A stretch of 62,938 bases of DNA, from positions 1 through 62,938 of IMG/VR virus record IMGVR_UViG_3300050130_000093, one strand, 5' to 3'. Both the position numbers and the translations under genes were made by a program. The notes beneath the pieces were generated by a model, which was given only the letters and a program-made list of their open reading frames with translations, did no database searches and was not told the DNA's origin. Positions 47,280 through 61,720 of the stretch are shown in pieces; positions within the stretch are counted from its first letter, which is position 1; every line of letters starts with the position of its first letter. Origin of the DNA: a virus (lineage: Duplodnaviria; Caudoviricetes).

Positions 47280-49443
47280 TCAGCTCTCCGGGCTCGTTGT
47301 CACGGACAAGATCCTGCAGATGACGCGCCGACTGGCGCCGATACTCCTCGGCAGCCGCAAGGAACGCCGGATCGTCCGGACGTTTGCGTGTCTCACGCAG
47401 CCTGCGCACTTCGCCTGCGAGCTCGGCGAGAACACTCGCGAGCATGTCGTCTGACTGGCGGATCGCCCTGGCACCCGCCGCGCCCGCAGGATTCGCCTTC
47501 GCCGGGAAACCACCGCGCGTCGGCGGACCCGCCGGCGTCGGCGCAGGGCGCCCGGGAACAGCCGGCTGTGTCGGCTGACCAGTCAACGGCGACCCCGGAC
47601 CCGGCTGGCCGCCCCCGGGCGGAACAGCCCCAGGCAAACCAACGAGCACACCCATCGGATCGTCCTCCTGCGCCGGAACCTTCGACGGATCAAGCTTGGC
47701 CGCCTGACGGTTCGTCGCAATGATCAACGTGCGCCGCCCGGTCCCCTGCTTCGGCTTCTGCGCCGGCTCACCGGTGACCGGGTTCGACACGCCGTCCGGG
47801 TCGTCCTCCATCTCAACATCCTCAAACTCGCCGTCGATCAGCTTCTGCTCCGCGTCGAAGTCGTAGTTCGCGATCCCCATCACCACCGCCGCCCTACTCC
47901 CCGCCGTCCGCTTGCTCAAATACTGGTTGGCCTCCGCGAAGCTCAAGTTCTGCAACGTCTGGGTCGCGTCCTCCGTCGCGATCGGCGGGAACGTGATGTC
48001 GATCGTCGCATCCACAATCGACGCAGAATCCATCACCCGGTCGCCCATGTCACCGAGAACCTGGCCAATGAACGCCTGACGGTCCTGCAACCGTTTCGCC
48101 ACCGGCTCCGTCGCAACCAGCGCATTCGCCGCCGTTCCGCCACGGAAAATCTGGATCACATAGTCGACCGGCACCCCAGGCCCGGCGCACACCATGTTCG
48201 CAAGCTCAATGAACGTCGGATCGACGTTGCTCCCCGACGTCTGGCGTTCCGGCGCGACCGCCGACAGCGAAGACGCACCGGTATGCGCAAACACCGTCCC
48301 CGGCCTCGGCGGCTGACCGTTCGGGAACAGCAGGTTCCGCACCAGCGACACGTCGGCCGCGTTGCCCTCCACGACAAGATCCCACGCCACCCTGGCCTGC
48401 ATGTCCGCCATCGTCACCTTCGACGTCAGGTAGTGCCGCAACCGTTCGATCCAACTCAGCGACGGGTACAGGTCCGACCTGCCACGGCGCTCGCTCGAGC
48501 TGACATTCAGCCGGTAGTGGTCAACCGACTGCGGCAGGATCTGGCGGATCACAAACTTCGTTAGCTGACCGCTCTTCGTCGGCCCGTACGGCGACGGCGC
48601 CATCCCGGCAGGCAGCGACCCTTGCGGCGCGTAAAGCTGGTATGGCGTCTGGTACTGCTGGTGGTACGCGTACACCGTCTCGAAGTCTTCGGGGTCGGTG
48701 AGGATGTCGTAGATCGACGCCGGATCGAGCGAGCGGACCGTCAACTTCGCAGGCTGGTAGGGGAAGTAGCGCAGAAACAGCTCGCCCAGGATGCATGCGT
48801 CCCGGCAAATCTCGTCCAGCCGGCTGTCCATCCGGTTGCGCTTCCAAAACTCGTCCCACGCCTGCTGCGCCTGAACATGCGACTGGCCGTTCGTCTTCTT
48901 CCACGCCACCACCACACCCTTGCCGAGCACGAACTCCTGCTGCAACTGGACGGCCCGCCACGTCAACGGATCGTGGTTGTACGCCTCGAACGCCTTCGCG
49001 CTCATGGCGAAGTAGTCCTGCCAGTACAGCTGTCTCGTGACCGGCCCTGGCAGCAGCGGGATCCACTGCGGATTGCTGCCATACGCGCCGAGCTGGTCGT
49101 AGCCCAACGCGAAACCGTCGCCCCACGACTCACGCAGCCGCTTCGGAAACCGTGCGACACGCCTGTCGAGCGCCTCCCGTGAACGGAAAAACTGGCGTTT
49201 GCTTTCCCTGATTACCATCCGGCCGCCAGACTCCGCGGCCTTCACGAACACCAGATGCGCCTCGATCTGATCGCCGGGGCCCGGCAGCCGGTCCGGACAC
49301 TCACCGGGCCGCAAATCCAGGCTCCAGTCGCCCGGGAACAGCGGCGGCGCATCCACCCTGAACGCCGACGCATGCTGCTCATGCAGCTCACCAAGCGCCC
49401 GTGCCTGCTCCGCGTCGATATGCCCGTTGCCGTTTACGCCCAC
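47263..49443 (-). CDS. portal protein
   Basis: Follows terL; GE.F, RGRSDL motif; Pro-rich C-terminus. Confidence 0.85.
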   Translation of the reverse strand: MGVNGNGHIDAEQARALGELHEQHASAFRVDAPPLFPGDWSLDLRPGECPDRLPGPGDQIEAHLVFVKAAESGGRMVIRESKRQFFRSREALDRRVARFPKRLRESWGDGFALGYDQLGAYGSNPQWIPLLPGPVTRQLYWQDYFAMSAKAFEAYNHDPLTWRAVQLQQEFVLGKGVVVAWKKTNGQSHVQAQQAWDEFWKRNRMDSRLDEICRDACILGELFLRYFPYQPAKLTVRSLDPASIYDILTDPEDFETVYAYHQQYQTPYQLYAPQGSLPAGMAPSPYGPTKSGQLTKFVIRQILPQSVDHYRLNVSSSERRGRSDLYPSLSWIERLRHYLTSKVTMADMQARVAWDLVVEGNAADVSLVRNLLFPNGQPPRPGTVFAHTGASSLSAVAPERQTSGSNVDPTFIELANMVCAGPGVPVDYVIQIFRGGTAANALVATEPVAKRLQDRQAFIGQVLGDMGDRVMDSASIVDATIDITFPPIATEDATQTLQNLSFAEANQYLSKRTAGSRAAVVMGIANYDFDAEQKLIDGEFEDVEMEDDPDGVSNPVTGEPAQKPKQGTGRRTLIIATNRQAAKLDPSKVPAQEDDPMGVLVGLPGAVPPGGGQPGPGSPLTGQPTQPAVPGRPAPTPAGPPTRGGFPAKANPAGAAGARAIRQSDDMLASVLAELAGEVRRLRETRKRPDDPAFLAAAEEYRRQSARHLQDLVRDNEPGELNGADH

Positions 49444-50969
49444 GGAAGCACCACAGGCGCAACCGCAACCGCACCAACGCCACCCGTCGGCGGAAAGATG
49501 TTGATCAAGGCGTACCCAAGGCTGTCGAGGCTGTGATCATTGATCCCGTCCTTCTTGTAGGTGTCCTTCACGACGCCACCAACCGCGTAGCTGTCCCACT
49601 GCGCCTGCTCGAACGCCTGCGCAAGCCGCGGACACTCCGAACAGTTCACCAACAGCCGACGGTTCTCAAGCAGATACTGCATCTGGCCCACCCGGTCAGA
49701 CGGCCCGACGCGCGCGAACTTGCCGCGACGATCCACCGCCACCGGAATACCAACGTCCTCGAGGATCCGCACGTCAGGGATTGTCGTCTGCGGATCGCGC
49801 GCACCCCCCGCAGGATCAACGCCGCTGCGCACCAGCATCGTCGTCAACCCAAGCTCACCGTCGCGGCGCAGGATCTCCGCAGCAAACGTCGGCGTCGGCC
49901 GCTGCTCCAACACCAACTCCGAGAACACCACGACCACACCGCCGGGACGGACCTCCATCCAGTAGCAGACCGCCGTGTTGATCCCGAAGTCGATGCCGCG
50001 CCACACCGGGTCACGCTGCTCCGGATGGACGCCCTCCATCGTCGGCGACCGAATGTAGCCAATGTGATGCGTCGACCGGCTGAAGTAGTCCGCGAACGGC
50101 GAGTCGCCAGCCAGCTGAAACGCTTCGGCCGGCGTGCTCGGATACTCCTGGCGAAACGCCCGATCGTTGCCGAGCTCGCGGCGCTTCGCGTCATGCCACG
50201 CCGCGTCACGCTCCGGATGCGCGTCCCGCGGAAAGAACAACGGCACATACGGCGAATCGTTCGGGCCCTCCACATGGTCCGGCGACAGTTTCCCCTCACA
50301 CGCCTGCCACATCCGGTGGAACGTGTTGCCAAACCCGCGCGCCGTCGAAATCCCGAGCAGCTTGCCGCCCGGACCGATCGTCGGCGCAACCGCCGTCATC
50401 AGCGTCTCAATGTTCAGGATCTTCGAAATCTCCTGCACGATCACGAGCTGCGTCGTAAACCCAGTCCCCGCATCAGACGTCGACGGCAAGCTCATGATCC
50501 GCGACTTCATCCCAGGAAACTCAACGTTGTTCTTCGAGTCAGGCTTTGTCCGGTCCCGCCGCAGCTGCGGCGGCAGGCGGTCGTGCATCACCTTGATCCG
50601 CCGGATCTCCTCCTCAGCCTCCCGCTGGGTGTAGCTGAAGATCAGCACCGTCTGACCCGTATTGAACGTGCACAACCACAACGCATACACGTCCGCCAGC
50701 CAACTCAAACCAAGCTGCCGCGCCTTCAACACCAGCACCCGGTCGTACTTGTCGAACGCCCGCAACGCCTCAACCTGAAACGGCCACAACTGAAACCGGC
50801 GAGGCGGCCCGCCACGATCCGACTCGATCCAGCAGAACCGGCTACAAAACACAGCCGGATCCAACGCCGCCGCCTCCACAACCGCCCGCGGAACCGCACG
50901 ACCCGATTGAACGCCATCCGCCGACACCACGGCAGGCAGCCAGTCCGTCTGCGTTTGCATCGCGCTCAT
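49434..50969 (-). CDS. terL: terminase large subunit
   Basis: L.PFQ, VLKARQLGLSW, ISTA.G, RQEY, GIDFG, DH..D..GY. Confidence 0.93.
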   Translation of the reverse strand: MSAMQTQTDWLPAVVSADGVQSGRAVPRAVVEAAALDPAVFCSRFCWIESDRGGPPRRFQLWPFQVEALRAFDKYDRVLVLKARQLGLSWLADVYALWLCTFNTGQTVLIFSYTQREAEEEIRRIKVMHDRLPPQLRRDRTKPDSKNNVEFPGMKSRIMSLPSTSDAGTGFTTQLVIVQEISKILNIETLMTAVAPTIGPGGKLLGISTARGFGNTFHRMWQACEGKLSPDHVEGPNDSPYVPLFFPRDAHPERDAAWHDAKRRELGNDRAFRQEYPSTPAEAFQLAGDSPFADYFSRSTHHIGYIRSPTMEGVHPEQRDPVWRGIDFGINTAVCYWMEVRPGGVVVVFSELVLEQRPTPTFAAEILRRDGELGLTTMLVRSGVDPAGGARDPQTTIPDVRILEDVGIPVAVDRRGKFARVGPSDRVGQMQYLLENRRLLVNCSECPRLAQAFEQAQWDSYAVGGVVKDTYKKDGINDHSLDSLGYALINIFPPTGGVGAVAVAPVVLPWA

Positions 50970-51011
50970 CGGTCACATCCCTTCGTCGCACCTGCTAGGG
51001 TGCGCTACCTA

Positions 51012-51293
51012 ATGCGACAAGTCAACCTGCGTCTTGACGACGCACTCTACGAACAGATCGAAACCGCCCGAGGCGACGTGCCACGCAACAAGTGGCTCAC
51101 CCGAGCAGCCGAAGCGCAGGTCGCCATCGGATCCCGACTACACAAGGAGCTCAAACGCGATGACGACGGGCTTCTTGCGAAACGCCAGGAGGAGGAGACC
51201 GATGGAACCGAACGAGCGGTTGCTGACGTACATCAACGAAGCGCTAAACAACGGACCGTTCGTCCCCGCGGAGGAAGCCGAGAGGATCATTGA
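51012..51293 (+). CDS. ribbon-helix-helix DNA-binding protein
   Basis: MRQVNLRLDDALYEQIETARGDVPRNKWL. Confidence 0.7.
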   Translation: MRQVNLRLDDALYEQIETARGDVPRNKWLTRAAEAQVAIGSRLHKELKRDDDGLLAKRQEEETDGTERAVADVHQRSAKQRTVRPRGGSREDH

Positions 51294-51723
51294 CCGCTGG
51301 ACTACTGAAGATCCCGCGACCCTCCACGCTTGGTACAGGCAGCAGCGTGTCGCCTTCGTACGGCGAGCCCTGCAAGACGCGCTAGACAAATGCCGGCCGA
51401 CGGTCTGCAGCGGCAGCGCCAAGCGTAGGTTCATAGATGCCGCCGAGACGCCGGGACCTTCCGTACTGGTCCGCTGGCGGTGCAAGGTCGATGACGAAGG
51501 CACCCAGCTCTCGATCGGTGCAATGCACGCCAAAGACCACAACTTCGTGGCGGCGGCTCGCGGCGATCAGGCGCACGCACTGGCGATGGTCGCAGCCTTC
51601 CACCGGGCAGTCGCATCCAGAATCGCCAACAAACGCACCGACCAAGTCTTCGATGCCGAAACACTCTTGGCGCTCTACAAGAGCATCAACAGCAGCGAAC
51701 CGAAGGAACTACAAGCCGCCTGA
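51202..51723 (+). CDS. hypothetical protein co-oriented with the array and Cas7-like gene
   Basis: AGGAGGAGGAG RBS; its stop abuts the array. Confidence 0.75.
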   Translation: MEPNERLLTYINEALNNGPFVPAEEAERIIDRWTTEDPATLHAWYRQQRVAFVRRALQDALDKCRPTVCSGSAKRRFIDAAETPGPSVLVRWRCKVDDEGTQLSIGAMHAKDHNFVAAARGDQAHALAMVAAFHRAVASRIANKRTDQVFDAETLLALYKSINSSEPKELQAA

Positions 51724-51976
51724 CAACGCTACGCCGCACTCGCCATCGCTGCCCTCACGACAACGCCTCCCGCGCCTCGCCACCCCCGGCCTCGCGAAGC
51801 CACCCCGGCCCCCACGACTCCCCTCTCCGCGCCAAGCCAGCACAACCCCTACGACTCCCCTTCCCAACGCACGCCCCGCCCTCTCTTCTCGCCGCACACG
51901 ACCACGCTGCTCGCCGCGCCACAGCTCGACGACCGTACCGGACCAGCGCACCTCGGCCCAGTCCACACGACAACCC
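51720..51976. repeat. 5-nt-periodic array (NN + CNC/NCC), six units delimited by ACGAC-like markers; candidate guide RNA locus
   Basis: 40 of 41 in-phase pentamers end in C; markers at 51720, 51757, 51814, 51851, 51898, 51930, 51967. Confidence 0.85.
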
Positions 51977-51990
51977 GAAAGGACACGACG

Positions 51991-52713
51991 ATGCCCACCA
52001 GCGTCTTCGCCGCATACGAACAACAGCACTACCCCTACCGGTTCGCCGGCACGCTCCACCTCAACTCAATCGCTGGCGGCGTACCACGCGACCCCGCCGT
52101 CCTCGAAGGACACCTGAAGCGCAAGACCGCCGAACCGGATGACCTGATCCGACAGGAGATCGCAAACGTCATGGCCGAACGCGCCCTCCGGGGCGAAGCA
52201 GACGGCGACATTGCCGTCGCTATCGAAGACGCCATCGGAGAGGTTGCCGTCACGAAGGGCCTCGTCGGCTTCCGCACCGACCCGGAACACGGCCTCTGGA
52301 TCCGCAGCGCACAACTCAAAGCCTGTATTCGCGAAGCAGGAAGCATCGCCGCTGCCGCCGGCAAGATCAAGCAGGCCGGCTGGGGACTCAACTCCGCCCA
52401 GCGCGGACTCCTCAAATGGCTCGCCGAACACGTCTTCGTCGTCGACGACCGCCTCTACCTCGGCGTCACCGAACCCACCTACACCGAGCAGTCGTTCATC
52501 CACAAGATGACACCGAAGGGACCGACATCGGCGATCCAATACACCGAAGTCGTCGAAAACGCCAAACTCGACTTCACGGTCGAAACGGACTGGGAGTTCC
52601 CCGAAGCCGACTGGGCCGCGATCTGGCTGACCGCCGAACAGAACGGTCTCGGCGCGTCCCGAAAGATGGGCTACGGCACGTTCACAGTCACGAAATGGGA
52701 ACGTCTTGGCTGA
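51991..52713 (+). CDS. stand-alone Cas7/RAMP-family protein
   Basis: GAAAGGA RBS; LWIRSAQLKACIRE resembles the Cas7/Csm3 IPGSSLKG.IR motif; C-terminal Gly-rich loop GLGASRKMGYGTF. Confidence 0.8.
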   Translation: MPTSVFAAYEQQHYPYRFAGTLHLNSIAGGVPRDPAVLEGHLKRKTAEPDDLIRQEIANVMAERALRGEADGDIAVAIEDAIGEVAVTKGLVGFRTDPEHGLWIRSAQLKACIREAGSIAAAAGKIKQAGWGLNSAQRGLLKWLAEHVFVVDDRLYLGVTEPTYTEQSFIHKMTPKGPTSAIQYTEVVENAKLDFTVETDWEFPEADWAAIWLTAEQNGLGASRKMGYGTFTVTKWERLG

Positions 52714-52823
52714 CTGGCCCGTCGAACAACCCACCGAACCCTGCCGCGACTGCGGAATCAACCCCCGCATGCCAATGTGGCGCACATGCCTGACGTGCTG
52801 GAAGAAGAACAGGAGACAAGCCG

Positions 52824-53219
52824 ATGCGAACACCCCACCAGACCTACCAAGACCTCCGCCACGAACTCCACCAACTCCAACAACGCCGCTGGATCCGCCG
52901 CAACATGATGCAAACCGGCACCCATAACGACGGCACCCCAATCTACGGACCCCGACGCCCCCTCAGCCGCCGCGAACTACGCAAAGTCAAAAAAGCCGTC
53001 ATCGAAGACCTAAAACACCAGGCCCGCGCCACCCAAACCGAATACGCAATCCACCGCCGCAGCAACCCAGCAGCCCCCGAACACCCCCACGACTACTGCT
53101 ACCCCGGCCGACAAAACGCCATCGACCGAGCAAACCACCACAACAACAGCCCCCACTACGAAGGCACCGACTGGGAACCCATCCAACGCGCCCTCCCAGC
53201 CTGGCACCCCGTCAACTAA
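52824..53219 (+). CDS. hypothetical protein
   Basis: AGGAG RBS upstream. Confidence 0.55.
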   Translation: MRTPHQTYQDLRHELHQLQQRRWIRRNMMQTGTHNDGTPIYGPRRPLSRRELRKVKKAVIEDLKHQARATQTEYAIHRRSNPAAPEHPHDYCYPGRQNAIDRANHHNNSPHYEGTDWEPIQRALPAWHPVN

Positions 53220-53398
53220 CGAACACCCTTTTTTTTCTTCCCGAAAAAAACCCGGGAGAAGTCTGAGGGCCCGTGCCGCGGTTTTGCCGTCCGTGTGGGT
53301 TTGCCGGGAAGTAGCGCCGTCGGCCCTCCGCCCCGCGCCATCCCCGACTGTCCGAGCTGTGCAGCTGCCCCGCCGCGCGATCGTTCTTGGCAGTCGGC

Positions 53399-53710
53399 TT
53401 AGCTTCGACACCACGAGCACTTGCAGCCAGGCTGATGATGCTGCGCCGGCCGCGGAACCGCGCTCGCTGGTCTCACCGCTCCGGACGCACGGATCTCCTC
53501 GAGACTGGCCGGAGTCCTGGTAGCCGGACGGATAGCGGTCGATCGAGCCGGCGCAGGCTGTGAGCTCGTGACGGGCGCCGAGTGACCTAGCGCCCGCTCC
53601 ACCGCGGCAGTGATCCACGCGTTCCGAGTCAACTCGCCTCGAGCTGCGTCGACGCGCTGCAGCAGCACTAGATCGAGCCTGAACGTCACCTGAAGCTTGC
53701 TGGTCGCCAT
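53399..53710 (-). CDS. ribbon-helix-helix protein, paralog of 51012..51293
   Basis: QVTFRLD..L.RVDAARGELTRNAWI. Confidence 0.7.
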   Translation of the reverse strand: MATSKLQVTFRLDLVLLQRVDAARGELTRNAWITAAVERALGHSAPVTSSQPAPARSTAIRPATRTPASLEEIRASGAVRPASAVPRPAQHHQPGCKCSWCRS

Positions 53711-53718
53711 CACCCGCA

Positions 53719-53773
53719 AGTGATATCACCCGCGCCTAACAAAGTGGTATCACCACGACCGAGTGATATCACC
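53719..53773. promoter_or_regulatory. three palindromic operator-like boxes AGTG[AG]TATCACC
   Basis: Copies at 53719, 53743 and 53762, directly upstream of the RHH gene. Confidence 0.7.
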
Positions 53774-53785
53774 GCGTATATACGT

Positions 53786-54349
53786 CTACGCCGCTTCGCT
53801 GCCCTCCACAACCTCATCCGACCCCGCGGCCAGCAGCTTCGCCGCCATCTCAATCCTCAGCGCCGGCGGTATCTTCGCCGGCTCAACACCGCCAGTGACC
53901 TCCAGCCGATGATCGACAGCACCGAACATCTCAACCTGACGCTTGTTGCTCCAGCGATCCGGCGCACGATTCGTCAACACGAACTTGAGCGCATCAACAT
54001 CACCACGATCGATCGCCTGCTTATACAACGACGACTCGACCGCATCAACCAACGCACACTCAGCGTCAAAGCACGCCTGGCGAAACGCCCGATCACGCGC
54101 CTTCCACCGATAGAACGTCGTGGTCGTGATCCCTGCCGCATTGCACGCCGCGACGATCGAACACCGCTTCGACATCAGCAGCTCCACAGCCCGCGGCATC
54201 CACGACCGCCCAAACGCCACGACCTCACCATCGACCTCATAACCACCATAGTCACCCGCGGGCGAACCAACCACAAGCGACCCTGATCGCCCGTCATCGC
54301 CTTGTTCGTGGCCGACTGGTGTTGTGGTCGTTGTGTCTGTGGTGGCCAT
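53786..54349 (-). CDS. terS: terminase small subunit (start uncertain)
   Basis: ACNAAGI...TFYRW..D..F, VESSLY..A..GD..A.KF.L.NR..W. Confidence 0.8.
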   Translation of the reverse strand: MATTDTTTTTPVGHEQGDDGRSGSLVVGSPAGDYGGYEVDGEVVAFGRSWMPRAVELLMSKRCSIVAACNAAGITTTTFYRWKARDRAFRQACFDAECALVDAVESSLYKQAIDRGDVDALKFVLTNRAPDRWSNKRQVEMFGAVDHRLEVTGGVEPAKIPPALRIEMAAKLLAAGSDEVVEGSEAA

Positions 54350-54539
54350 CGTTTGTGGTCTCCGTGGCTGGGTTTGGTTCTGGGTGGTTCGGTGACGGTC
54401 GGTCTGGAACGACGAACGCCGCCCCTGCGGACGGCGTCGGATGTCGTTTGGCCTTGTGCTGCGGGCGATTCTGAAGAAAGGTCTAGCCGCTGCGTCAGAG
54501 GGTAGCACTTCGGAAAACGGAACGCCAGACGTGCCGCTG

Positions 54540-54767
54540 TTACGGATCCTGAACGGTTCGGCTGTCCTTGACGATTCCGTGGAGTCGTGCCCTAGACAAC
54601 CCTGTCGCGGTCGCCAACTGTTGATATGTGGCGCCTTGTTTGACGAGCTCCGCGAAATACGCGTTTCGAACGGTCCGTTTCGCTTCGTAGAGCGCGAACG
54701 CTTCGCGCTGATCGTCTTCGACGCGTTGCGCCTCGTCTAGCTGTTCTGGAGTGATCATCAGTCCCAC
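54540..54767 (-). CDS. HTH DNA-binding protein
   Basis: GATYQQLATATGLSRARLHGIV. Confidence 0.7.
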   Translation of the reverse strand: MGLMITPEQLDEAQRVEDDQREAFALYEAKRTVRNAYFAELVKQGATYQQLATATGLSRARLHGIVKDSRTVQDP

Positions 54768-54949
54768 CGCCTTACGATTGCCGCGTACTCGCGCTCAAGG
54801 ACACGGCGCGTGTCTAGGATCGCTCCGAGACTCGCGCCGGAAACGTCGAGCGTCGTTTCGAGGTGGCGCAGCTCGGCAAGTGCCCGGTCGATGTGGCCGG
54901 ACACCTCCATATCACGCCGATGGTCGCGGCTCATTTGGTCGTCTTCCAT
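54758..54949 (-). CDS. hypothetical protein
   Basis: AAAGGA RBS. Confidence 0.55.
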   Translation of the reverse strand: MEDDQMSRDHRRDMEVSGHIDRALAELRHLETTLDVSGASLGAILDTRRVLEREYAAIVRRWD

Positions 54950-54961
54950 GGTTCGTCCTTT

Positions 54962-55324
54962 CTAGTCGTTGGTTGCGCAATCCTCGAGCGACCGCAGAAA
55001 CGTGTCGGATGGTGGCGTGTAGCGGAACGGTCCGCCTGTCGAACGTGACCGTCCCTGCCGTGCTGCTTCGCGCTCAAGCGCCCGGTCGTCGATCGAGACC
55101 GCGGCGCCGGCAAGCTGGAGCGCGTGACGGATCCTCCTGCGCTTGTGATGCAGGAAGTGCGTCAACGCGAATCCGCCGGCGATGATGTCCGCCCACATTC
55201 CCAGACGGTCTAGCGGGATCCCTGCAGGTTTGACACTGTTCAGACCGGACGCTGCGCCGGCAGTCGCTAGAGCGATCGCTGAGGCTTCGACACGGCGCAG
55301 CACGTGGATCTTCGGCAACTTCAT
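54962..55324 (-). CDS. hypothetical membrane-associated protein
   Basis: ATGA coupling; hydrophobic stretches. Confidence 0.5.
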   Translation of the reverse strand: MKLPKIHVLRRVEASAIALATAGAASGLNSVKPAGIPLDRLGMWADIIAGGFALTHFLHHKRRRIRHALQLAGAAVSIDDRALEREAARQGRSRSTGGPFRYTPPSDTFLRSLEDCATND

Positions 55325-55803
55325 CGCGGCACCGCAACGCAATCCGCATCGGCGACGTAGTACGGATCGACGGCCGCTAGAAAGTCGCCATGCCAGCGGG
55401 CGCAGCATTCCGTGACGTACTCAAGCGACACGGGGCCGCCGATCTTCGCGAGTCCAGTGCGCATCGCGGGCGAAACGACTGCGAGCGTTGACCATTCGCA
55501 GTCTTCCTCACCGATCCACACTTCTACGGCGCCGGGTGCTTCGTCGACGCGTTGATAGCGCTCGCTCGTGATGATCCTGCGGCCGATCTTCGCTACGTAG
55601 CCTGTATGACCTGTGCGGCGTGCCGCTTCGATCGTTTCGGGCCGTAGTCCGAGCTCGTCGACGATCGCGACGCATCCGCCGTGACCTGGCGTGCTGAACC
55701 AGTAGATACCGGGTGCGATCTTCGTTTGCGACTGAACCGGGCTGCCCCAAAGATCGGCGGCCATCTGTCGCGCAAGCGCGCTAGGTGTCGTTCCGTTCGT
55801 CAT
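55321..55803 (-). CDS. hypothetical protein
   Basis: APGIYWFSTPGHGG...EEDCEW; first gene after the promoter. Confidence 0.65.
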   Translation of the reverse strand: MTNGTTPSALARQMAADLWGSPVQSQTKIAPGIYWFSTPGHGGCVAIVDELGLRPETIEAARRTGHTGYVAKIGRRIITSERYQRVDEAPGAVEVWIGEEDCEWSTLAVVSPAMRTGLAKIGGPVSLEYVTECCARWHGDFLAAVDPYYVADADCVAVPR

Positions 55804-55842
55804 TGTCTGTCCTTGGTTCGTTGGTTGAGACTGCATGCTGCA

Positions 55843-55963
55843 AGCATCCTCCGCGCCGCCCGCTTTGTCAAGGGTCCGGAACGCGTCTTAACAATCCAGT
55901 GGCGCAGTCATTCATTAGAACGCGTTCGTCGCCCTTGACAAAACATCAGCCGCAGGGGATACT
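55843..55963. promoter_or_regulatory. divergent sigma70-type promoters within an imperfect inverted repeat
   Basis: TTGACA-N17-GATGCT on the minus strand and TTGACA-N17-GATACT on the plus strand. Confidence 0.7.
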
Positions 55964-56002
55964 CGCGCATATGAAGTTCAAACCCAATCCAAGGACACGC
56001 CG

Positions 56003-56179
56003 ATGACATCTCACGATCGACACCTAGAGCCCGACGACGTCTGCGAGCGCTGCGGCGCGCCGTTTCGTTTCGCACGCTGCCCGTACTGCGCCGACGAGCG
56101 AGCTGAGCGAGACGCCGACACGAAGCTGTCCGACCCGGACTTTGACCGCGTGACGCTGCGCTACCGGGACGAGCTGTGA
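56003..56179 (+). CDS. small zinc-ribbon protein
   Basis: AAGGA RBS; CERCG..CPYC. Confidence 0.55.
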   Translation: MTSHDRHLEPDDVCERCGAPFRFARCPYCADERAERDADTKLSDPDFDRVTLRYRDEL

Positions 56180-56239
56180 ATCTCCACGCCTGAGCCGTTC
56201 CGCACCGTTCTCACGGCGTCGCGCACGGACCGAAGGGCA

Positions 56240-56655
56240 GCGTTCAGCCTAGACGTCTGAAAGGTCGGACGGCGGTCCTGACGCACCCCGAAACGCTAAC
56301 GGCCTCCGGTCAGGCTGGAGTCCGACAACCACCCTGCCGCGCGTGTTGGCCGATGATGAGTCGACCGTGAGTGTCACCCGCCGTCCGAATCTAGATTCTA
56401 GACGCCAAAACCTGGGTGGATGGTACGGACGTCGCGAGAATTCGCCAACCGGCCCGGCAATTTCGGCCGCGCGACGATTCCCGGCCAACATCGCCAGAGC
56501 TCATCCCAGGATTCCCTTGGGGTGGTCCCCCTCAAGGACGGGCGTCACCGGCCGCTGGGTGAACGAAAAGCTGGGTGGACCGAATGGCTTTCTCGGCATT
56601 GCCAAAACCGGCCCAGCGCTAGCGCGTGTTTAGCGCTTAGCGCTCAGCGCTGACC
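56240..56655. ncRNA. candidate structured non-coding RNA or cis-acting element
   Basis: Long intergenic region with several complementary segments; strand and family unknown. Confidence 0.35.
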
Positions 56656-56761
56656 AAATCAGGAGATCCCCCCCTCCTTTCCCCTCACGCCCACAGTCGA
56701 TCCCACAGACGCTCAGTCGCCCGCCACACAATCACGAACACCGCCGCCTCGGCCAGTTTGG

Positions 56762-58027
56762 TCAGACAACCGCGCATCGCTTCGCCGCCTTTCTCGCCGC
56801 CTCCATCATCTCCGCCGGACTGCGCCCGACGAACTCGCCCCAACCATCATCCGGCAGACCGCAGAACACGGCCAAGCGGTCCGCCTGCTCCGCGTCCAAC
56901 ATCGAGAACTCCTCGGTCACGTCAACACGCCCGGGACGCAGTAGAGCCGTGTCGAGCGCGTCACGGTCGTTCGTGGTGAGCACCGTCACCAGGCCGTGCG
57001 GCGTCCAGACGCCATCGAGCGCGTTCAGCATCGCCGCAAGCGACGCCTTCGGTGAGTCATCGTCGCGGTCCACCGCGGCGTGGTACACGTCGGCGTCCTC
57101 GATCAACAGGATGCTGCGCGAACGGATCTGCCCCACGAGATTCATCAGGTCGGCGTCGCGCTCGAGATCGCCGAGCGGCAGGTAGTGCACCGGCAGGTCG
57201 AAGTGGTTCGCGAGCGCCCGGGCGACACTCGTCTTGCCGGTGCCTGGCGGTCCGTGGAACAGGTAGCCGCGATGCCACGGCTGCGACAACCTGGCGTAGT
57301 CAGCCTCGGACGCGATGAAGCCACCAAGGTCGTCAACGAGCCGCTCAAGCTGCCCAGCCCTCAGCACGACACTGGCGAGCGCGCGCGGCGGCAGATCATC
57401 CCGGCGCGACCAGTCACCACCCCACCGTGACGGCATCAGCAACGACGGCTGCTTCTTGGTCGCGTAGACCTGAACAGCCAGCTGTTCCAGCATCGAAACC
57501 ACGGCGTCACGGCCAGCCGGCGTCTTGGCCGTGAACTTGATCGACTCCATGAGGCGCCGCCAGTTCGGCGGTAGGTGCTCGCGGCCGCCCGGTAAGTCCT
57601 CGCGCTCAACCTGGACGTCGATCTTGTGGCCGTCGAGCGAAACCGTCTGCGTGCGACTGCCGTCGTAGCGCAAACGCACTCGTCTCGCCGGCTCCTCCGG
57701 CTCATCCACATCCCCGACCGCCAGCAGCCGGCCGAACCCGCTGTTCTCGGATGTCGTGTCGGCGATCATCGCCTTGCGTGTCTCGGCCGGGATCCGCTCA
57801 AGCACCCACTCGTGCAGTGCCGGGTAGAGCTCATCGCTGCCAGCGACGGCGATCGTGAAGTCCTCCTTCTGACGCTTTTCCGCGAGCCACTTCCACGCCG
57901 GTGCCCCGAGCTGCACCGCCGCCACAACCGCGAGCGCTCGCTGGCCGTGCTTACCACCGTAGCGCTCAACGATTGGCCACAGCGACCCAGGCGCAGCCGC
58001 CGCCTTCAACTCACCGGCCGTGTTCAC
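56762..58027 (-). CDS. AAA+ ATPase, BCS1-like
   Basis: WHRGYLFHGPPGTGKTS, LLIEDAD, LNALDGV, TTN, LLRPGRVD. Confidence 0.9.
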   Translation of the reverse strand: MNTAGELKAAAAPGSLWPIVERYGGKHGQRALAVVAAVQLGAPAWKWLAEKRQKEDFTIAVAGSDELYPALHEWVLERIPAETRKAMIADTTSENSGFGRLLAVGDVDEPEEPARRVRLRYDGSRTQTVSLDGHKIDVQVEREDLPGGREHLPPNWRRLMESIKFTAKTPAGRDAVVSMLEQLAVQVYATKKQPSLLMPSRWGGDWSRRDDLPPRALASVVLRAGQLERLVDDLGGFIASEADYARLSQPWHRGYLFHGPPGTGKTSVARALANHFDLPVHYLPLGDLERDADLMNLVGQIRSRSILLIEDADVYHAAVDRDDDSPKASLAAMLNALDGVWTPHGLVTVLTTNDRDALDTALLRPGRVDVTEEFSMLDAEQADRLAVFCGLPDDGWGEFVGRSPAEMMEAARKAAKRCAVV

Positions 58028-58785
58028 GACTTCTCCTTCAACTCGTTGCCGTCACTGCGCCGCTGACCAAGCCTGTCCCGAGCATTCTCGATCGTCCGCG
58101 GCGAACCCAAGCTCGGATCCAACGTGCTCACCACATGGCTCGCGACGCCCCGCCATCTCGCCAACCGCTGGTCACGCGCCTCCAACGTCTGCTGCTGACG
58201 CTCACTCGAAGCGGGCCGTCTCTCAGCCGTATCAACCTCATCCTCAAGCCGTTCAAGGAACTGGCCAATCACATACCGGTAGCGAGCGGCCAACGAAAGC
58301 TCCTTCGCGTCGACGGCGTCGTGACGGACGTTCAACGCCTTCGGTGGCGGGCTACTCGACGGCTTCGACCGTGTCGCGACAGCCACCGCACCAGCAGGCA
58401 CCGTCGTCAACAGCTCCGCCCGATTCAACGCCTCGTCGAGCCGCTGGCCCAACGTCATCCGCAACCGTCTCGCACGCTCCGTCGCCGCCGCCTGCTCGAG
58501 CACTTCGTCGTGACGCTCACGATTCTCGGTCGCAAGATCATCCAACTCACGGCGTTGGTCGCGCTCGAGGATCCCGGCGCTCAACCGTCGGTAGCGACGC
58601 TCCAAACGTTGCAACTCAAGTCGCGGATCGTCGGCACCAGCCAACTGCTTCTTGATGTCCGAGCGTGCCCGGTTGAGCCCGACCGCGACGGCCGTGATTC
58701 TCGCCTCGCGCTCCCAGAACAGCGAATCGTCGCCGGATGGGTCGCCGAACGCTGCGGCGAGTCGCTTCTCGATATCGTCAGCCAC
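58024..58785 (-). CDS. hypothetical coiled-coil protein (start uncertain)
   Basis: Long ORF coupled to the ATPase gene. Confidence 0.55.
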   Translation of the reverse strand: MADDIEKRLAAAFGDPSGDDSLFWEREARITAVAVGLNRARSDIKKQLAGADDPRLELQRLERRYRRLSAGILERDQRRELDDLATENRERHDEVLEQAAATERARRLRMTLGQRLDEALNRAELLTTVPAGAVAVATRSKPSSSPPPKALNVRHDAVDAKELSLAARYRYVIGQFLERLEDEVDTAERRPASSERQQQTLEARDQRLARWRGVASHVVSTLDPSLGSPRTIENARDRLGQRRSDGNELKEKS

Positions 58786-59010
58786 ACGGCTGAGTCTAGA
58801 AGCGGGTCGAAGCCCGCAGGGCCAGACCCGTGCAAACGTCTCGCCCTTCCACCAGCCGATGAATCTGCAACTCGTGGGCGCCAAGCCTATCGGCCTGCCG
58901 ACGTCTGGCAGCCGTGCGAACTTCGGTCAGGCCGAAACGCTCGCAGGCCATGATCGACCGTCCGTAGGCGACAGCGACCCGTGCCAACACCGCATCAAGC
59001 TCCCGGTCGG

Positions 59011-60172
59011 TCATGTCTCGTCGAGCACCTCCCGTACGGTGATCCACGACCCAGCCGACTCACCGCACTCAGGACAGAACGTCGCGGTCCACGGCTGCTC
59101 CCAGCCCTCTTGGTAGTTCTCCTGCACGTTGGGACGGTTGCCGACGTAGCCGCAGTCGTAGCAGGACACGACCTCAAAAACTCGTGGTTCGCGCGGTTGC
59201 GCCTGCTCAGTCATCTGCCAGGAACACCCGGAAGCGGCTGGACGTTCGCTTTGCCCCATCATCAGGCGTCGCTCGCGTCCTCCCAATTGCGCTGCCTGTG
59301 AAGGTCGCACAGGCCGTTGGCGCCCTTTTTGTGCGAGCGCGGGCGTTCGCACCAACACGACGCGCCACGGTCCCGATTCGGACGCTGGGCGTTCGACCGC
59401 TGGTTGTAGGCGCGCGTAGCGTCGGGATGATCGCGCTTGTACTGGGCGCCGGTGCCGCTCATAGCGCCTCCAACCATGCGCGCGCCTCGGCTTCGTTCTC
59501 GCGGGACACCCACGCGGCCAGCGTGATCGGGTCTTGTGGGTGATTCCACGCGCGGTTCGGCGACACCATCCACGGCTCAATGCCGGGCCTAGGGACGTGC
59601 GTGTCGTTGATCGTCCAGGTGCGCTCCTCTGAGAGCATCCCGTCGAAGTTGAGCACCACCCGCAGCAGCGGTCGTCTTATAGGTCCAGCGCTATGCCCCA
59701 CGTCAGTCATGGTCATCGCTCCATCCCATGACGTTCAGGAGCTTGCGATCAACGCGGGACTCGTCGCCGTTGTCGAGGGTCACGATCCACCAACCGGAGA
59801 ACGGCGGGTACTCGCTCGTCACGACGCCAGCCTGTCCGGCATTCGGATGATCGCCGTAGATCAGCACGCGCAGACCGATCAAATCGGCGTCTCCGTCTCT
59901 CACGCTAAGCCCCATCAGCAGTCCTCCCAGGCGGTCACGGTGCGACGCTGGACGCGGACTCGCGCATTAGGATCGTGCGAGAGGTCTGGGAGCACGCGAG
60001 CGTTTCCTTCTGGGGTCGGGTAGCCGATCAGGCGCGAGCCGCCCGTGAACTCCACGAGACGACGGAACTCGATGCCACCGTCCTGCCAAATCTCGCGCTC
60101 CCAAGCGATGCGCTCAGCCTCGCGCAGCGGCTCAAGTGCTCTGTCGTTACGCCCCATGTTCGGCTGTCTCAT
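59011..60172 (-). other. run of small overlapping hypothetical genes (59011-, 59262-, 59459-59716, 59703-59915, 59915-60172)
   Basis: Coupled short ORFs, one with CYDC/CPEC Zn ribbon. Confidence 0.5.
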
Positions 60173-60570
60173 GCGGCTTTCCTTTCAGTGTCGAGCTGTT
60201 CGTCGGTTGGTGATGGGCCGAGCTTTGCGGCCCGGACAGGACCCCTCAACTCATTCGCACGTTCCCGCGCCTCACGACGCCTATCGAACCGCTCGACGAC
60301 CGTACCGGACCAGCGCACCACAACCCAGTCGCCATCGACACGCGCCACCGTGAACGGCAACCTCGGTCGAAGACGCCGCCTGAGCCGTTCCGCAGCGTTC
60401 TGCGAGCCTCGCAGCGCACCTGGATGGTTGAGTAGCCACTGACGTTTCCGACAAGCCTGGTCGCAGTACAGACGGCTCGCAGCGGCATCGGCGGGTAGCG
60501 GCTTGCGACAGCGAACGTAGCCGCAGGTCCGCGTGGTGGTTCCGCGATGCAGCAGATCAAGCAGTCCCAT
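60169..60570 (-). CDS. Zn-finger hypothetical protein containing the array-matching sequence
   Basis: C...C..L......YC...CR; ATGA coupling to the next gene. Confidence 0.65.
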   Translation of the reverse strand: MGLLDLLHRGTTTRTCGYVRCRKPLPADAAASRLYCDQACRKRQWLLNHPGALRGSQNAAERLRRRLRPRLPFTVARVDGDWVVVRWSGTVVERFDRRREARERANELRGPVRAAKLGPSPTDEQLDTERKAA

Positions 60571-60767
60571 GGCACCGCGCACACTACACCAGCCGAACGA
60601 CAGCAACGAAGGAAGAAACGGTCGGTTGGGGGTGGTTAGGGTGTGGTTCGCGCGCGCGTGCGATGTCGCAAACGTGGGTGTGGCTGGACGGGGCTCGCGC
60701 CCGTGGGCTGGCTTTCGACATGTGCTCTCACAGCCGACTGAACGGCGGAGCATCGATGGCCCCGTCG

Positions 60768-61109
60768 CTATGTCGTGGTGCGCCGCGCTTTCCCGGTTAG
60801 GGCTTTGCGGGTGCTGCGGTTCCACGGCCGCACACACATCGGCGTGCCGGTCGCGGCAAGTTGTCGTGCTTGCGCTAGGTCGGAGCGGGCTTTCTCGCGC
60901 TCGGCGCGCAGTGTGACGCGAACGAGCGATGCGATGCCGCTGGCGTTAGCGCATCCGGGTCCGTAGCCGTTCTTGCGAGCCCTGGCTGACTTGAGATGCC
61001 CGTCGCAGCGGACGCAACGGTGGAACTCCCACTCGTCGGCGGCCCACCAGATGACATAGTTGCCAACCCACTTGGGTGCGGAGTTGCGGTCCGACACCGC
61101 TCTATGCAA
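60768..61109 (-). CDS. Zn-finger protein
   Basis: CVRC...L.......GYGPGCA. Confidence 0.55.
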   Translation of the reverse strand: MHRAVSDRNSAPKWVGNYVIWWAADEWEFHRCVRCDGHLKSARARKNGYGPGCANASGIASLVRVTLRAEREKARSDLAQARQLAATGTPMCVRPWNRSTRKALTGKARRTTT

Positions 61110-61198
61110 TCATCGAGTTGGGATTAAGCACCCGCCCAGCATACACGCTGGCCGACCGACCCGTCATTTGCCGAAAGGCTCGGCGGGTCGTTTCGGTT

Positions 61199-61720
61199 CT
61201 ACAGGTCCAGCGACTGCTGCGGAGTCTTCGGGGTCGGCTTCGCCTCGTCGGCGTCGAGCACGGCCTGAACGTGCGACGGAACGCGCGATAGGAAGTCCTC
61301 GAACCGTCCCGCGGTCGAGAAGATGCGCTCCCACTCGTCGAAATGCTTGACCCGGCCGTTGCGCTGCGTCACCGAGTAGTGGTCGAACGCGCAACCGGCG
61401 ATCGCTCCCTTACACCGCAGCTGCCCGTACTTCTTCAGGTACGGCAGCACGTCCCAGAACCTCGACGCCGTCCACTCCGCGCGCGGGTGGTTCGTCACGT
61501 CCTTCCAGTACAGGAATAGTTCGATCGCGACCGGCCACAGTTTGTGCTCCTGGGCTTCGCGTTCCTTGTCGCGCGCGAGCTCGGCGTACCTGAGCCGCCA
61601 TGTCCTGACGTCCCGGTGTGCGCCGGCCAGTTCGTCTTGAAGGTTGCGGATCGTTGCGGCGGCGTCGAGGATCTCTTCGCCGTTGCTGGTGACTACGCGT
61701 AGTAGCGGCGACTCGCTCAC
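61199..61720 (-). CDS. putative replication-initiator-related protein
   Basis: LF.YW....AI.GC..D.Y....F..WERIF...RFE.F, as in phage replisome organiser C-termini. Confidence 0.45.
   Translation of the reverse strand: MSESPLLRVVTSNGEEILDAAATIRNLQDELAGAHRDVRTWRLRYAELARDKEREAQEHKLWPVAIELFLYWKDVTNHPRAEWTASRFWDVLPYLKKYGQLRCKGAIAGCAFDHYSVTQRNGRVKHFDEWERIFSTAGRFEDFLSRVPSHVQAVLDADEAKPTPKTPQQSLDL

Follow-up and report, generated by a model that had tools for sequence, protein, structure and literature searches.

A punctuated C-rich non-coding array with a five-nucleotide period, linked to two conserved phage genes

The stretch of DNA analyzed here (the window; all 62,938 nt of the IMG/VR record IMGVR_UViG_3300050130_000093, from a virus of the Caudoviricetes) carries a non-coding, C-rich array on the + strand at 51724-51990, which extends from the first base past the stop codon of an upstream gene to the start codon of a downstream gene. 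The upstream gene (51202-51723, + strand) encodes a 173-aa protein of unknown function and fold, designated up173, whose start at 51202 (MEPNERLL) is the one predicted from alignment with relatives. The downstream gene (51991-52713, + strand) encodes a conserved 240-aa protein, designated p240, and both genes are conserved partners of the tract. p240 has a conserved N-terminus and its own ribosome-binding site, a Shine-Dalgarno-like GAAAGGA that was read from the sequence at 51974-51980 (+ strand), 10 nt upstream of the ATG, and that has the counterparts GAAAGAG, AAGGAG and GAAAGGAA in relatives. Packaging genes lie beside this cassette in the window, a large terminase gene at 49434-50969 and an HTH/small-terminase-like gene at 53786-54508. 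An Rfam cmscan of 50000-54000 (E ≤ 1) returned no match in the tract and none at gathering score, the single sub-threshold row being Sphinx_2 (24.1 bits versus 34) at 51553-51714, outside the tract. No DNA similarity to 51000-52800 was found in 50,697 phage records. Four peat-metagenome DNA runs over 51300-52700 showed no differences, a result that is uninformative on variation or expression. A strict consensus scan detected no sigma-70 promoter in the window (50700-54000) or in the relative L059, and promoter-like hexamers seen by eye at the ends of the L059 tracts are not claimed, the strict scan being negative.

The array is 267 nt long and contains 52% C and 20% G (C 140, G 53, A 51, T 27; n = 271), with a C recurring every 5 nt. 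As shown by autocorrelation, the signal of C at lag 5 is +0.31 (z +4.7), a value reached by 0 of 5000 dinucleotide shuffles, so that the period of five described in the original prediction was upheld. The top peak of the array spectrum lies at period 2.47, the second harmonic of ~5, with a power of 6.89 compared to a mean shuffle maximum of 2.67, and was reached by 0 of 500 shuffles. When 200-nt segments of the whole 62.9 kb were compared, the 11 top lag-5 values of C all started within 51651-51901, as did six of the seven most C-rich segments of the contig. The spectrum of the window array showed no period 3, all three codon positions were equally C-rich at 51700-52000, and the mean lag-3 z in 34 relatives was −1.8, again with no period-3 signal, in agreement with the earlier claim that the stretch is not translated. 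Tandem Repeats Finder (minimum score 30) returned 0 rows for the array, as expected from the earlier view that it is no slippage microsatellite, and a repeat search over 50900-62938 found no repeat family inside the tract besides a single 43-nt pair with position 60288.

The stretch is also punctuated, as had been proposed. ACGAC occurs seven times in 51724-51990, while dinucleotide shuffles contain it 1.32 times on average and six times at most, and 0 of 5000 reach seven. Since some 5-mer reaches seven copies in 28% of 2000 shuffles, however, this count is weaker evidence than the periodicity and the relatives. The marks, all on the + strand, are located at 51757-51761 (CACGAC-A, the form that the (C)CGAC(W) mark of the family takes locally), 51814-51818 (CACGAC-T), 51851-51855 (TACGAC-T), 51898-51902 (CACGAC-C), 51929-51933 (GACGAC-C, overlapping a second CGAC at 51926), 51967-51971 (CACGACAACCC) and 51985-51989, the last of which falls between the ribosome-binding site and the ATG. 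The final CGACAACCC of the sixth mark, ahead of the ribosome-binding site, is common to the relatives L003, L004 and L013. The true spacings are 57, 37, 47, 31, 38 and 18 nt, and in pentamers phased on these marks position 5 is C in 89% of 37. The original prediction had parsed the stretch into six variable-length units separated by ACGAC, and under that parse 40 of 41 triplets are indeed CNC or NCC and 40 of 41 pentamers end in C, but the sequence rebuilt from these units breaks at 51930. Its fifth marker had been read one base too far to the right and is CGACC (the true mark is at 51929), and its first marker, at 51720, is CTGAC, which contains the TGA stop of the upstream gene. The rule that all spacings are 5n+7 gave way as well, with just three of the five true spacings within the range of that parse being 5n+2. 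Finally, the two-base strings of the units had been taken for a gapped address; however, against the remainder of the window the strings of the six units did not outperform permuted ones, and none of 18 tests, with the strings contiguous or with 1 or 3 skipped bases, fell below 0.05. The tracts of two relatives likewise had no matches elsewhere in their own records (158 kb and 58 kb). The remaining suggestion, that the CGAC marks are candidate processing sites, is plausible in view of the CGAC core conserved between phages, the mark flanks homogenised in each genome and the weak RAMP/Cas6-like matches of the adjacent gene, all described below.

Relatives in IMG/VR were found by alignment-based scans, a single-protein scan having found nothing, and tracts were present in 65 of 78 non-duplicate p240-encoding loci, with lengths of 150-1920 nt as detected. 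In 259 in-phase units (1651 pentamers, 78 loci), pentamer position 1 was C in 95.4%, with a range of 95-97% across unit sets that included a set of 104 units, while positions 2 and 3 were random at 1.98 bits each. C was found in 50% at position 4 and in 67% at position 5, the latter being a pyrimidine in 85%. A conventional tandem repeat or microsatellite was rejected on the basis of the 0 rows from Tandem Repeats Finder and the 1.98 bits at each of positions 2 and 3. The 92 tracts (53,010 nt) contain 890 CGAC[T/A] marks, up to ~55 per locus, with a conserved mark length of ~6-10 nt. Mark spacings were 3 mod 5 in 321 of 807 cases, with peaks at 38, 33, 43 and 48 nt, unit lengths step by 5 (33, 38, 43, 48 and 53 nt), units comprise 5 to 10 pentamers, and a mark shifts the register by 3 nt in the family and by 2 nt in this window. 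The CGAC core persists between phages even where identity in the neighbouring protein is down to 32-63%. Its flanking bases are homogenised genome by genome (chi-square p = 1e-34 for position −1, 2e-43 for position −2), A being found at −1 in seven of eight marks of the window and C in its nearest relatives, L003 and L004. This within-genome homogenisation of the flanks suggests that the marks may have a genome-specific reader. No paper on such an element was found in the literature searched, and the stretch represents a single example of a type of non-coding array that had not been listed before.

The lattice C stays at 95-97% while identity at the synonymous sites of these phages has fallen to 60-76%. 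Tract interiors change faster than synonymous sites and tract ends are conserved better than synonymous sites, the 5' end being conserved and leader-like between close relatives. Close relatives (p240 92-95% identical) nevertheless differ in tract length, with 829 versus 605 nt in one comparison and 975 versus 630 nt in another. Only 17 similar pairs were found among the units of at least 28 nt from the 807, so that units are almost all unique, and these few pairs together with the empty Tandem Repeats Finder output indicate that the lattice is kept by selection and not by duplication. The 43-nt piece at 51921-51963 (+ strand), which comprises mark 5 and the next unit, is 91% identical to 60288-60330 (+ strand). 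The second copy lies antisense within a gene of the − strand (60169-60573), the product of which weakly resembles DUF2188 at the copy site, and the tract piece probably derives from this second copy.

The tract is linked exclusively to the two partner genes. In five whole actinobacterial genomes (~41.7 Mb), nine of nine matches to a two-mark pattern were at p240 loci, while the reversed control pattern gave 0 matches in the same sequence; a three-mark pattern matched 17 IMG/VR stretches, and the six of these that had the lattice were all on p240-bearing contigs. BLAST clustering of the open reading frames at the 78 loci recovered p240 in 72 loci, up173 in 37 and an antisense shadow frame inside p240 in 25, with no further neighbour family in more than eight loci; families were defined here by clustering and not by gene name. 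The commonest order is up173, tract, p240 (28 of 78 loci), and in four loci up173 and p240 are adjacent with no tract detected. Elsewhere the tract lies before, between or after the two genes and in either orientation (L024, L030, L053, L059, L060 and L063). The surroundings vary as well: in L075, which stems from a prophage of Nocardiopsis tropica JCM 10877, the cassette lies among recombination and replication genes (Rad52-family, RusA), in L024 it lies beside a portal-like gene, and in PP395641, a cultured phage, about 80 bp of the linear record remain to the right of the tract. Other copies are found in prophages of cultured Nocardiopsis and Streptosporangium strains.

The C-rich strand is the sense strand of p240 in 83 of 92 tracts and is inverted in 9 of 92. 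These orientation counts rest only on p240 and up173 genes located by HMM; strand calls from GC3-filtered open reading frames were dropped, p240 itself having been called 'opposite' in some loci. Among tracts more than 200 nt from either gene, 16 were C-oriented and four G-oriented. The inverted tract of L059 is separated from p240 by an intrinsic terminator with a 15-bp stem, and that of L024 lies between co-directional genes, the portal gene and then p240. In the window, each of 200 shuffles folds better than the C strand (z +2.2), and the G strand has a z of 0. The bias is modest in 18 relatives, where the mean z was +0.63 for the C strand (14 of 18 positive) and −0.40 for the G strand.

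We also compared the two partner proteins with known families. At the thresholds used, Pfam has no family for p240 or up173, and PHROGs has none for p240 or for up173 of the window, although the unnamed phrog_4604 matched four of 17 up173 members. In public data p240 forms 951 clusters at 50% identity. Its database similarities are only to CRISPR RAMP models (Cas6, Csm4, Cmr6), and all are weak and below cut-offs: Csm4 was matched by 11 of 46 members, Cas6 by 7 of 46, Cas_Cas6_C by 5 of 46 and RAMPs by 3 of 46. In PADLOC, RAMP models were the best match in five of five p240 members and made up 17 of the 18 matches listed (best E 1e-4). The scores were 12-20 bits against cut-offs of 55-59, the matches were confined to the C-terminal 30-65 residues, and hhalign of p240 against 11 Cas6 proteins aligned 28 columns (P 0.01, probability 4%). 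RAMP proteins are built of one or two RRM/ferredoxin-like domains and carry a glycine-rich C-terminal loop, G-h-G-x5-G-h-G, that includes a basic residue. Residues 219-229 of p240 (GLGASRKMGYG) have this form and align to GLGSKNSQGFG of Cas6 proteins, and the database similarities come from this loop and the ~60 residues ahead of it. Across 46 diverse members G219 and R224 do not vary, and G221 and G229 hardly do. A sequence search of solved structures returned only noise. In the ESM Atlas the structural neighbours of the p240 model were unnamed viral clusters, and the nearest named ones were a ribonucleotide reductase small chain (0.85) and a RAMP (0.75), both below the level at which a neighbour is counted; nothing useful was returned for up173. 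Longer forms of p240 contained no extra domain with a credible match (0 of 10), and the extra N-terminal residues probably reflect start codons wrongly called within the open tract.

Our favoured reading, which we put forward tentatively and at somewhat less than even confidence, is that the tract is a single-stranded, probably RNA, protein-binding lattice read in a 5-nt register by the cassette's own proteins. Array, up173 and p240 would together form a three-part phage cassette, in which a near-invariant C, usually following a pyrimidine, recurs in 5-nt steps and leaves two bases free in between, and in which (C/A)CGAC(W) marks every 33-53 nt punctuate the lattice and shift its register. The active form would most likely be a C-rich transcript running from up173 into p240, acting as an unstructured, multivalent platform to which protein may bind with one C-pocket per protomer. 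The marks could serve as sites of nucleation, boundary or cleavage, and the reader could be the RAMP-like p240, perhaps with up173. Transcription of the tract, its action as a single strand, its binding by p240 or up173 and any cleavage would all be parts of this model. In its favour are the lattice and its punctuation, the linkage to the two genes, the genome-specific mark flanks, the sense-strand bias and weak folding of the C strand, the terminator that sets the inverted L059 tract apart from p240, the RAMP similarities of p240 and the scarcity of similar units. The nine inverted tracts count against this reading, and the inverted tract of L024 would fit a DNA-level site or a separate antisense transcript equally well. 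Further points against it are the tracts lying more than 200 nt from either gene, the low-scoring and C-terminal RAMP similarity, the 6-nt register of known RAMP backbones, the four adjacent gene pairs with no detected tract and the modest folding bias in relatives. The closest parallel in grammar is found in the TRAP-binding leaders of Bacillus trp genes, which consist of 9-11 (G/U)AG triplets with 2-3 free bases between. The tract follows the same (triplet + NN)n scheme, and its conservation climbs to the third base of the triplet (C 50%, 67% and 95%), which is the pattern expected, by analogy, from binding to a protein oligomer whose protomers each offer one pocket at a pitch of 5 nt. In contrast to these leaders, the triplet is cCC and not GAG, the arrays reach hundreds of pentamers and are punctuated, neither neighbouring protein matches Pfam at the thresholds used, and the tract is viral and found in high-GC Actinomycetota. 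Units of anywhere between 5 and 10 pentamers make a closed ring of constant size unlikely.

The cassette also resembles CRISPR loci in several respects, being a non-coding array of unique ~30-45-nt units that are split by a short conserved mark, that turn over fast between close relatives behind a conserved leader-like 5' end, and one of which copies other DNA, beside a gene (p240) similar only to RAMP proteins. However, the mark has ~6-10 nt instead of the 23-50 nt of a near-identical repeat, the 'spacers' follow the 5-nt C lattice with lengths in steps of 5 where CRISPR spacers are nearly uniform in length and unconstrained in sequence, the units of two relatives lack matches in their own genomes, and the clustering, which went by sequence similarity and not by names such as those of the adaptation genes cas1 and cas2 or of a full effector set, found no neighbour family beyond p240, up173 and the shadow frame in more than eight loci. 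In addition, known RAMP backbones bind RNA in a 6-nt register and not a 5-nt one, with no sequence preference. It is unlikely that the cassette is a CRISPR-independent RAMP-RNA system of phages, in which the array would be a fast-evolving library of guide-like or decoy RNAs for phage-host or phage-phage conflict. Under such a scheme the array would be transcribed and cut at CGAC into ~35-50-nt RNAs, which the fixed cytosines would dock on a p240 filament in a 5-nt register with up173 as partner, with both free bases of every pentamer remaining exposed; turnover would proceed unit by unit, and a unit could be taken up from other DNA, for which the 43-nt match to 60288-60330 may be an example. 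A further comparison is offered by type III toxin-antitoxin systems of the ToxIN kind, where ToxI-type arrays consist of 2-6 near-identical tandem RNA repeats together with an endoribonuclease. Like these, the cassette is small, self-contained and carried on mobile DNA, with putative RNA units of ~35-45 nt beside a gene for a protein that might cut and bind them. It differs in having up to ~55 marks per locus with units that are all different and no tandem repeats, no ToxN-type match for p240 or up173 (Pfam, PADLOC), no terminator between array and gene in the window, and a second conserved protein.

A reading of the tract at the DNA level, as an array of double- or single-stranded binding sites for up173 and/or p240 at an origin, partition, packaging or recombination site, in the manner of iteron or centromere arrays, is possible but doubtful. 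The varied placement and orientation of the tracts are typical of arrays beside genes for binding proteins, and the surroundings would suit such a site, with recombination and replication genes around the L075 cassette, packaging genes beside the cassettes of the window and of L024, and the end of the record near the tract of PP395641. A 5-bp register, however, would put successive sites on opposite faces of B-DNA, and we know of no DNA-binding array with a 5-bp step. The C strand is the sense strand in 83 of 92 tracts, the similarities of p240 are only to RNA-binding RAMPs, and since a folding bias is meaningful only for a single strand, the fact that the C strand, and not the G strand, is less foldable than shuffles also counts against a DNA site. 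Action at the RNA level by the host's own machinery, that is, a super-site at which untranslated C-rich RNA loads Rho and thereby silences or times the downstream gene or soaks up Rho, is quite unlikely. Rut sites are loosely defined and ~60-80 nt long. An E. coli study (PMC6144790) places regularly spaced 5'-YC dimers in C>G regions among the best predictors of Rho-dependent termination and accepts YC linkers of 9-13 nt. The lattice is in effect a pyrimidine and then C every 5 nt (positions 5 and 1), the strand is unstructured with C:G of ~3 to 1, so that the C>G skew, YC content and weak structure of a rut site are all present, and every third pentamer (15 nt) would fit the linker spacing of the E. 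coli study. In contrast, Rho needs no CGAC marks, quantised unit lengths or genome-specific mark flanks, and rut sites lack an exact register as well as dedicated genes beside them. The linkage of the tract is to two specific genes and not to operon boundaries in general, some tracts are inverted, and lengths of up to 1.9 kb far exceed what a rut site requires. For full-length Mycobacterium tuberculosis Rho, moreover, rut sites are reported (PMC13650167) to show neither YC enrichment nor a C>G bias, which also speaks against this reading.

It is decidedly improbable that the tract is a degenerate minisatellite without function that expands by itself in an intergenic gap where it is tolerated. 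Very large length differences between close relatives and the four loci with the gene pair and no detected tract would fit such an origin, but units are not copies of one another, one base in five stays 95-97% C beside random neighbours despite the synonymous divergence, tract ends are conserved better than synonymous sites, and the mark pattern is missing from the rest of the ~41.7 Mb of host genomes. An array of non-B-DNA structures, either G-quadruplexes on the G-rich strand (GG or GGG every 5 nt with 2-3-nt loops) or C-strand i-motifs acting on replication, transcription or recombination, is very improbable. Runs that are kept while loops are free do form the pattern of a short-loop quadruplex (C 95%, 67% and 50% at positions 1, 5 and 4); still, the CC (GG) required for even a two-layer quadruplex occurs in only about two thirds of pentamers, a run-based structure predicts no single position far more constrained than its neighbours, and the CGAC marks and two-gene linkage are left unexplained. 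Coding readings were rejected, there being no period 3 and three equally C-rich codon positions, and it is extremely improbable that the stretch encodes a Pro/Thr-rich linker joining up173 and p240 by TGA read-through or a small gene on the minus strand. The two genes do share one frame with a single TGA between them, none of the three + frames is interrupted within the tract (ORF 51437-52117), and a 116-aa − strand frame runs over 51709-52059, but a scarcity of T and G is itself expected to leave frames open, p240 starts with a conserved N-terminus behind a ribosome-binding site of its own, and a period-5 constraint is impossible from codons.

Overall, the period-5 constraint is attributable neither to codons nor to the DNA helix. 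The presence of 95-97% C at one base in five, between random neighbours and along tracts of up to 1.9 kb, points to a molecular reader whose step is 5 nt and which, as far as our searches reached, is undescribed for bacteria or their viruses. The element is common, judging from the many clusters of its partner protein, and since the cassette is found in prophages of cultured strains and in one cultured phage, it is open to study at the bench. If p240 is truly a RAMP protein, a RAMP fold together with an array of unique units would be in use outside CRISPR-Cas, which would bear on the origin of CRISPR effector modules. Even if the tract were a Rho trap or an array of DNA sites, it would represent a new regulatory device of actinophages.

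The viral contig is linear (62,938 bases, ~65% G+C, completeness rated at ~60%) and carries its structural genes on the minus strand. Between the large terminase gene (49434-50969, minus strand; PHROG 2, E 3.5e-35) and an HTH/small-terminase-like gene (53786-54508, minus strand) is a small plus-strand island holding the gene for a 173-aa protein (up173, 51202-51723), a C-lattice tract (51724-51990), the gene for a 240-aa protein (p240, 51991-52713) and two small ORFs. The tract occupies the entire gap from the TGA of up173 to the ATG of p240, and a GAAAGGA ribosome-binding site is found 5' of this ATG. Over 50000-54000, the coding strand of the island is rich in C and A, with a GC skew of -0.18 to -0.19 and an AT skew of +0.20 to +0.23, and C is ~3 times as frequent as G at the third codon positions of p240, the opposite bias to that of the window's minus-strand genes. 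Just 5' of up173, and overlapping its assumed start, a small plus-strand ORF with the start MRQVNLRLDDALYEQIE (51012-51293) presumably resembles a ribbon-helix-helix protein, judging by its motif; PADLOC returned no match for this ORF, which may be a candidate regulator of the island. Downstream of p240 there are a Cys-rich (zinc-ribbon-like) small ORF (52706-52927, plus strand) and a 131-aa ORF (52824-53219, plus strand) without relatives in the related loci, followed at the junction with the minus-strand genes by a T-run/A-run sequence (53225-53265), a possible two-way terminator.

The tract consists of 52% C and 20% G, and its 5-nt pattern is real. The lag-5 autocorrelation of C was +0.31 (z +4.7), a value that none of 5000 dinucleotide-preserving shuffles reached, and the comparison with shuffles suggested in the original prediction thus failed to reproduce the periodicity. 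Lag 10 was also elevated (z +2.2), the top spectral peak (period 2.47, the second harmonic of ~5) was reached by 0 of 500 shuffles, and when the entire contig was scanned in 200-nt steps, both the highest lag-5 C values and the most C-rich windows fell in the tract. The tract contains 7 copies of the mark ACGAC (1.3 expected), a count seen in 0 of 5000 shuffles. The spacings first proposed had to be amended, since the fifth mark had been placed one base off (true values 57, 37, 47, 31, 38 and 18) and the supposed first mark is actually CTGAC, which contains the stop codon. When the window was parsed from the true marks, pentamer position 5 was C in 89% (n=37 pentamers).

The p240 family is large and without a name, comprising 111 proteins in a word-indexed search and 951 clusters at 50% identity in an exhaustive one. 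A p240 profile located 72 viral loci and 11 genome loci (Nocardiopsis, Streptosporangium, Actinomadura, Streptomyces and other Actinomycetota). One of the genome contigs bearing the cassette was binned to a Burkholderiaceae MAG, the other ten genome matches being from Actinomycetota, and this placing may reflect a binning error or a broader host range. In 34 loci, the p240 homologue starts right after a tract, 120-1280 nt long, that is rich in C and poor in G; mean z values in these tracts are +4.4 (lag 5), +3.2 (lag 10), -4.1 (lag 2) and -1.8 (lag 3). Raw reading of the relatives' tracts showed pentamer strings with CCGACT(A/T)CCC-like marks. Using thresholds of our own (C at least 42%, G at most 24%, lag-5 at least 0.12), we pooled 92 tracts (53 kb) from 78 non-duplicate loci. 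These contain 890 CGAC[T/A] marks, whose spacings are 3 mod 5 in 321 of 807 cases, with peaks at 38, 33, 43 and 48 nt. Across 259 in-phase units, position 1 was C in 95.4% of 1651 pentamers (97% in the first 104 units), position 5 was a pyrimidine in 85%, position 4 was C in 50%, and positions 2 and 3 each had 1.98 bits. The grammar originally proposed, two free bases plus a C-rich triplet with register-shifting punctuation, is therefore a family-wide rule in the pooled tracts, of which the window holds a short copy with 7 marks, a variant mark having A for C before CGAC, and a register shift at marks of 2 versus 3 in the family.

At least one tract was detected in 65 of the 78 loci, which are excerpts of 4-11 kb, such that a locus scored without a tract may have one outside the excerpt. 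A match to the up173 profile was found beside p240 in most loci with enough sequence. The commonest order was up173-tract-p240 (28 loci); some other loci have additional tracts 5' of up173 and 3' of p240, both flanking tracts are inverted in 3 loci, and the 2 loci in which the gene order is swapped each have a direct and an inverted tract. No further neighbour gene family occurred in more than 8 loci, save for an antisense shadow frame that lies within p240 (25 loci). The wider context varied: recombination genes (Rad52-family, RusA) at locus L075, a portal-like gene and a long head-protein-like gene, named by eye from translations, at locus L024, terminase genes in the window, and a Thg1-like gene at locus L051. 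This last gene (6099-6929, plus strand), similar to the tRNA-His guanylyltransferase family (E 4.9e-25), is ~370 nt past the p240 match (5729 to 6099) of a 158-kb viral record. As far as tested, the linkage between tract and p240 is exclusive: a two-mark pattern searched for in five whole host genomes (~41.7 Mb) matched 9 times, always at p240 loci, against 0 matches of the reversed control pattern, and a three-mark pattern found 17 stretches in IMG/VR, 6 with the lattice, all on p240-bearing contigs, and 11 without it. Among cultured phages only PP395641 carries p240 (31% identity), in the order up173-sized gene, p240, tract with CCGACTACCC marks, and the tract stops ~80 bp short of the record's end. 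This record is titled Microcystis phage Mae-JY09; the locus (PP395641.1 31725-38976) is 73% G+C over 7 kb, an odd composition for a Microcystis phage, and has an actinophage-type cassette.

Close relatives, with p240 proteins 92-95% identical and four-fold sites 60-76% identical, were used to follow the evolution of the tracts. The tract ends are well conserved (first ~60 nt, last ~40 nt), while the interior aligns at just 57-61%, about the level given by the shared lattice alone, and lengths differ by 108-345 nt. Units of at least 28 nt among the 807 are nearly all unique: 13 similar pairs join units of different loci, and 4 join units of one locus. A few individual units have stayed 91-95% identical between phages in which the units beside them have been replaced, and the whole sequence of some units seems to be under selection. 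Such units occur in L037/L039/L068 and L010/L018/L020, where p240 is 73-92% identical and the neighbour units are unrelated. The bases flanking CGAC are homogenised per genome (p 1e-34 at -1, 2e-43 at -2), giving genome-specific marks such as CACGAC in the window, TTCGAC in L016, TCCGAC in L013 and CGCCGAC in L039, L068 and L053. One 43-nt stretch within the tract (51921-51963) copies the antisense strand of a gene of the same phage (60288-60330) at 91% identity, and both copies start at CGACGAC; the L051 and L013 tracts had no such matches elsewhere in their own records. In the gene with the second copy (60169-60573, minus strand), a CxxC...CxxC stretch is accompanied by a C-terminus weakly similar to DUF2188 (E 0.03), and a 36-nt segment common to 60377-60412 and 56187-56222 (83% identical) suggests paralogous small genes.

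The searches run with up173, including PADLOC, gave no informative similarity, and p240 reached no family cut-off. The recurring weak matches of p240 were all to CRISPR RAMP families: Csm4 (11 of 46 diverse members), Cas6 (7), Cas_Cas6_C (5) and RAMPs (3). In PADLOC, RAMP models (Csm4, Cmr6, type IV Cas5, Cas6) were the best match for 5 of 5 members tested and made up 17 of the 18 matches listed (best E 1e-4). These matches are confined to the last 30-65 residues, centred on GLGASRKMGYG, which aligns with the GLGSKNSQGFG loop of Actinomycetota Cas6 proteins and in which G219 and R224 are invariant; profile-profile alignment with Cas6 was limited to 28 columns (P 0.01). Judging from these sequence matches, p240 is probably, though by no means certainly, of RAMP ancestry.

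The C strand is the p240 sense strand in 83 of 92 tracts, the usual tract spans from stop codon to ribosome-binding site, and no plus-strand terminator was seen in the window; at L059, a strong terminator separates an inverted tract from p240. In the window the C strand folds worse than 200 of 200 shuffles and the G strand is average, an asymmetry seen more weakly in 18 relatives (positive for the C strand in 14 versus 7 for the G strand). Strand bias, stop-to-RBS span, the L059 terminator and folding argue for action as a single strand, which would most simply be the transcript. One fixed base per 5 nt, with a pyrimidine before it and two free bases after, is the constraint expected if the strand were coated by a polymeric protein whose protomers each have one cytosine pocket and follow one another at a pitch of 5 nt. 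The marks, with a conserved core and genome-specific flanks, resemble the sites of a sequence-specific partner, which would co-evolve with them, for which the cassette's own proteins would be the obvious candidates. We thus tentatively prefer a ribonucleoprotein (or single-strand DNA-protein) lattice with p240 and/or up173 as its reader; the nearest known parallel in grammar is the GAG-NN repeat bound by TRAP.

An array of sites acting as DNA is a rather unlikely alternative, in whose favour tract position and orientation are free and the inverted tract of L024 lies between co-directional genes. We consider a Rho-loading super-site improbable: the YC lattice suits the Rho primary site (PMC6144790), but the marks and the gene linkage speak against it, as do the M. 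tuberculosis data (PMC13650167). A functionless minisatellite is a little less probable again; TRF returned 0 rows, rejecting a tandem repeat and bearing out the view that the array is unlike a slippage microsatellite. Quadruplex or i-motif arrays are slightly less probable still. Coding sequence is barely credible and was rejected, as period 3 is absent and C-richness is equal at all three codon positions, in agreement with the early statement that this is not a codon pattern; the open frames across the tract, including one common to up173 and p240 with one TGA between, follow from a T- and G-poor stretch.

Single traits are in common with CRISPR arrays, ToxI-type arrays, TRAP leaders and rut sites. 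The tract fails a tested defining feature of each of the first three, and it has the sequence features of rut sites. The tract matched no family in an Rfam scan, and the literature searched, together with Rfam, yielded no description of such an element.
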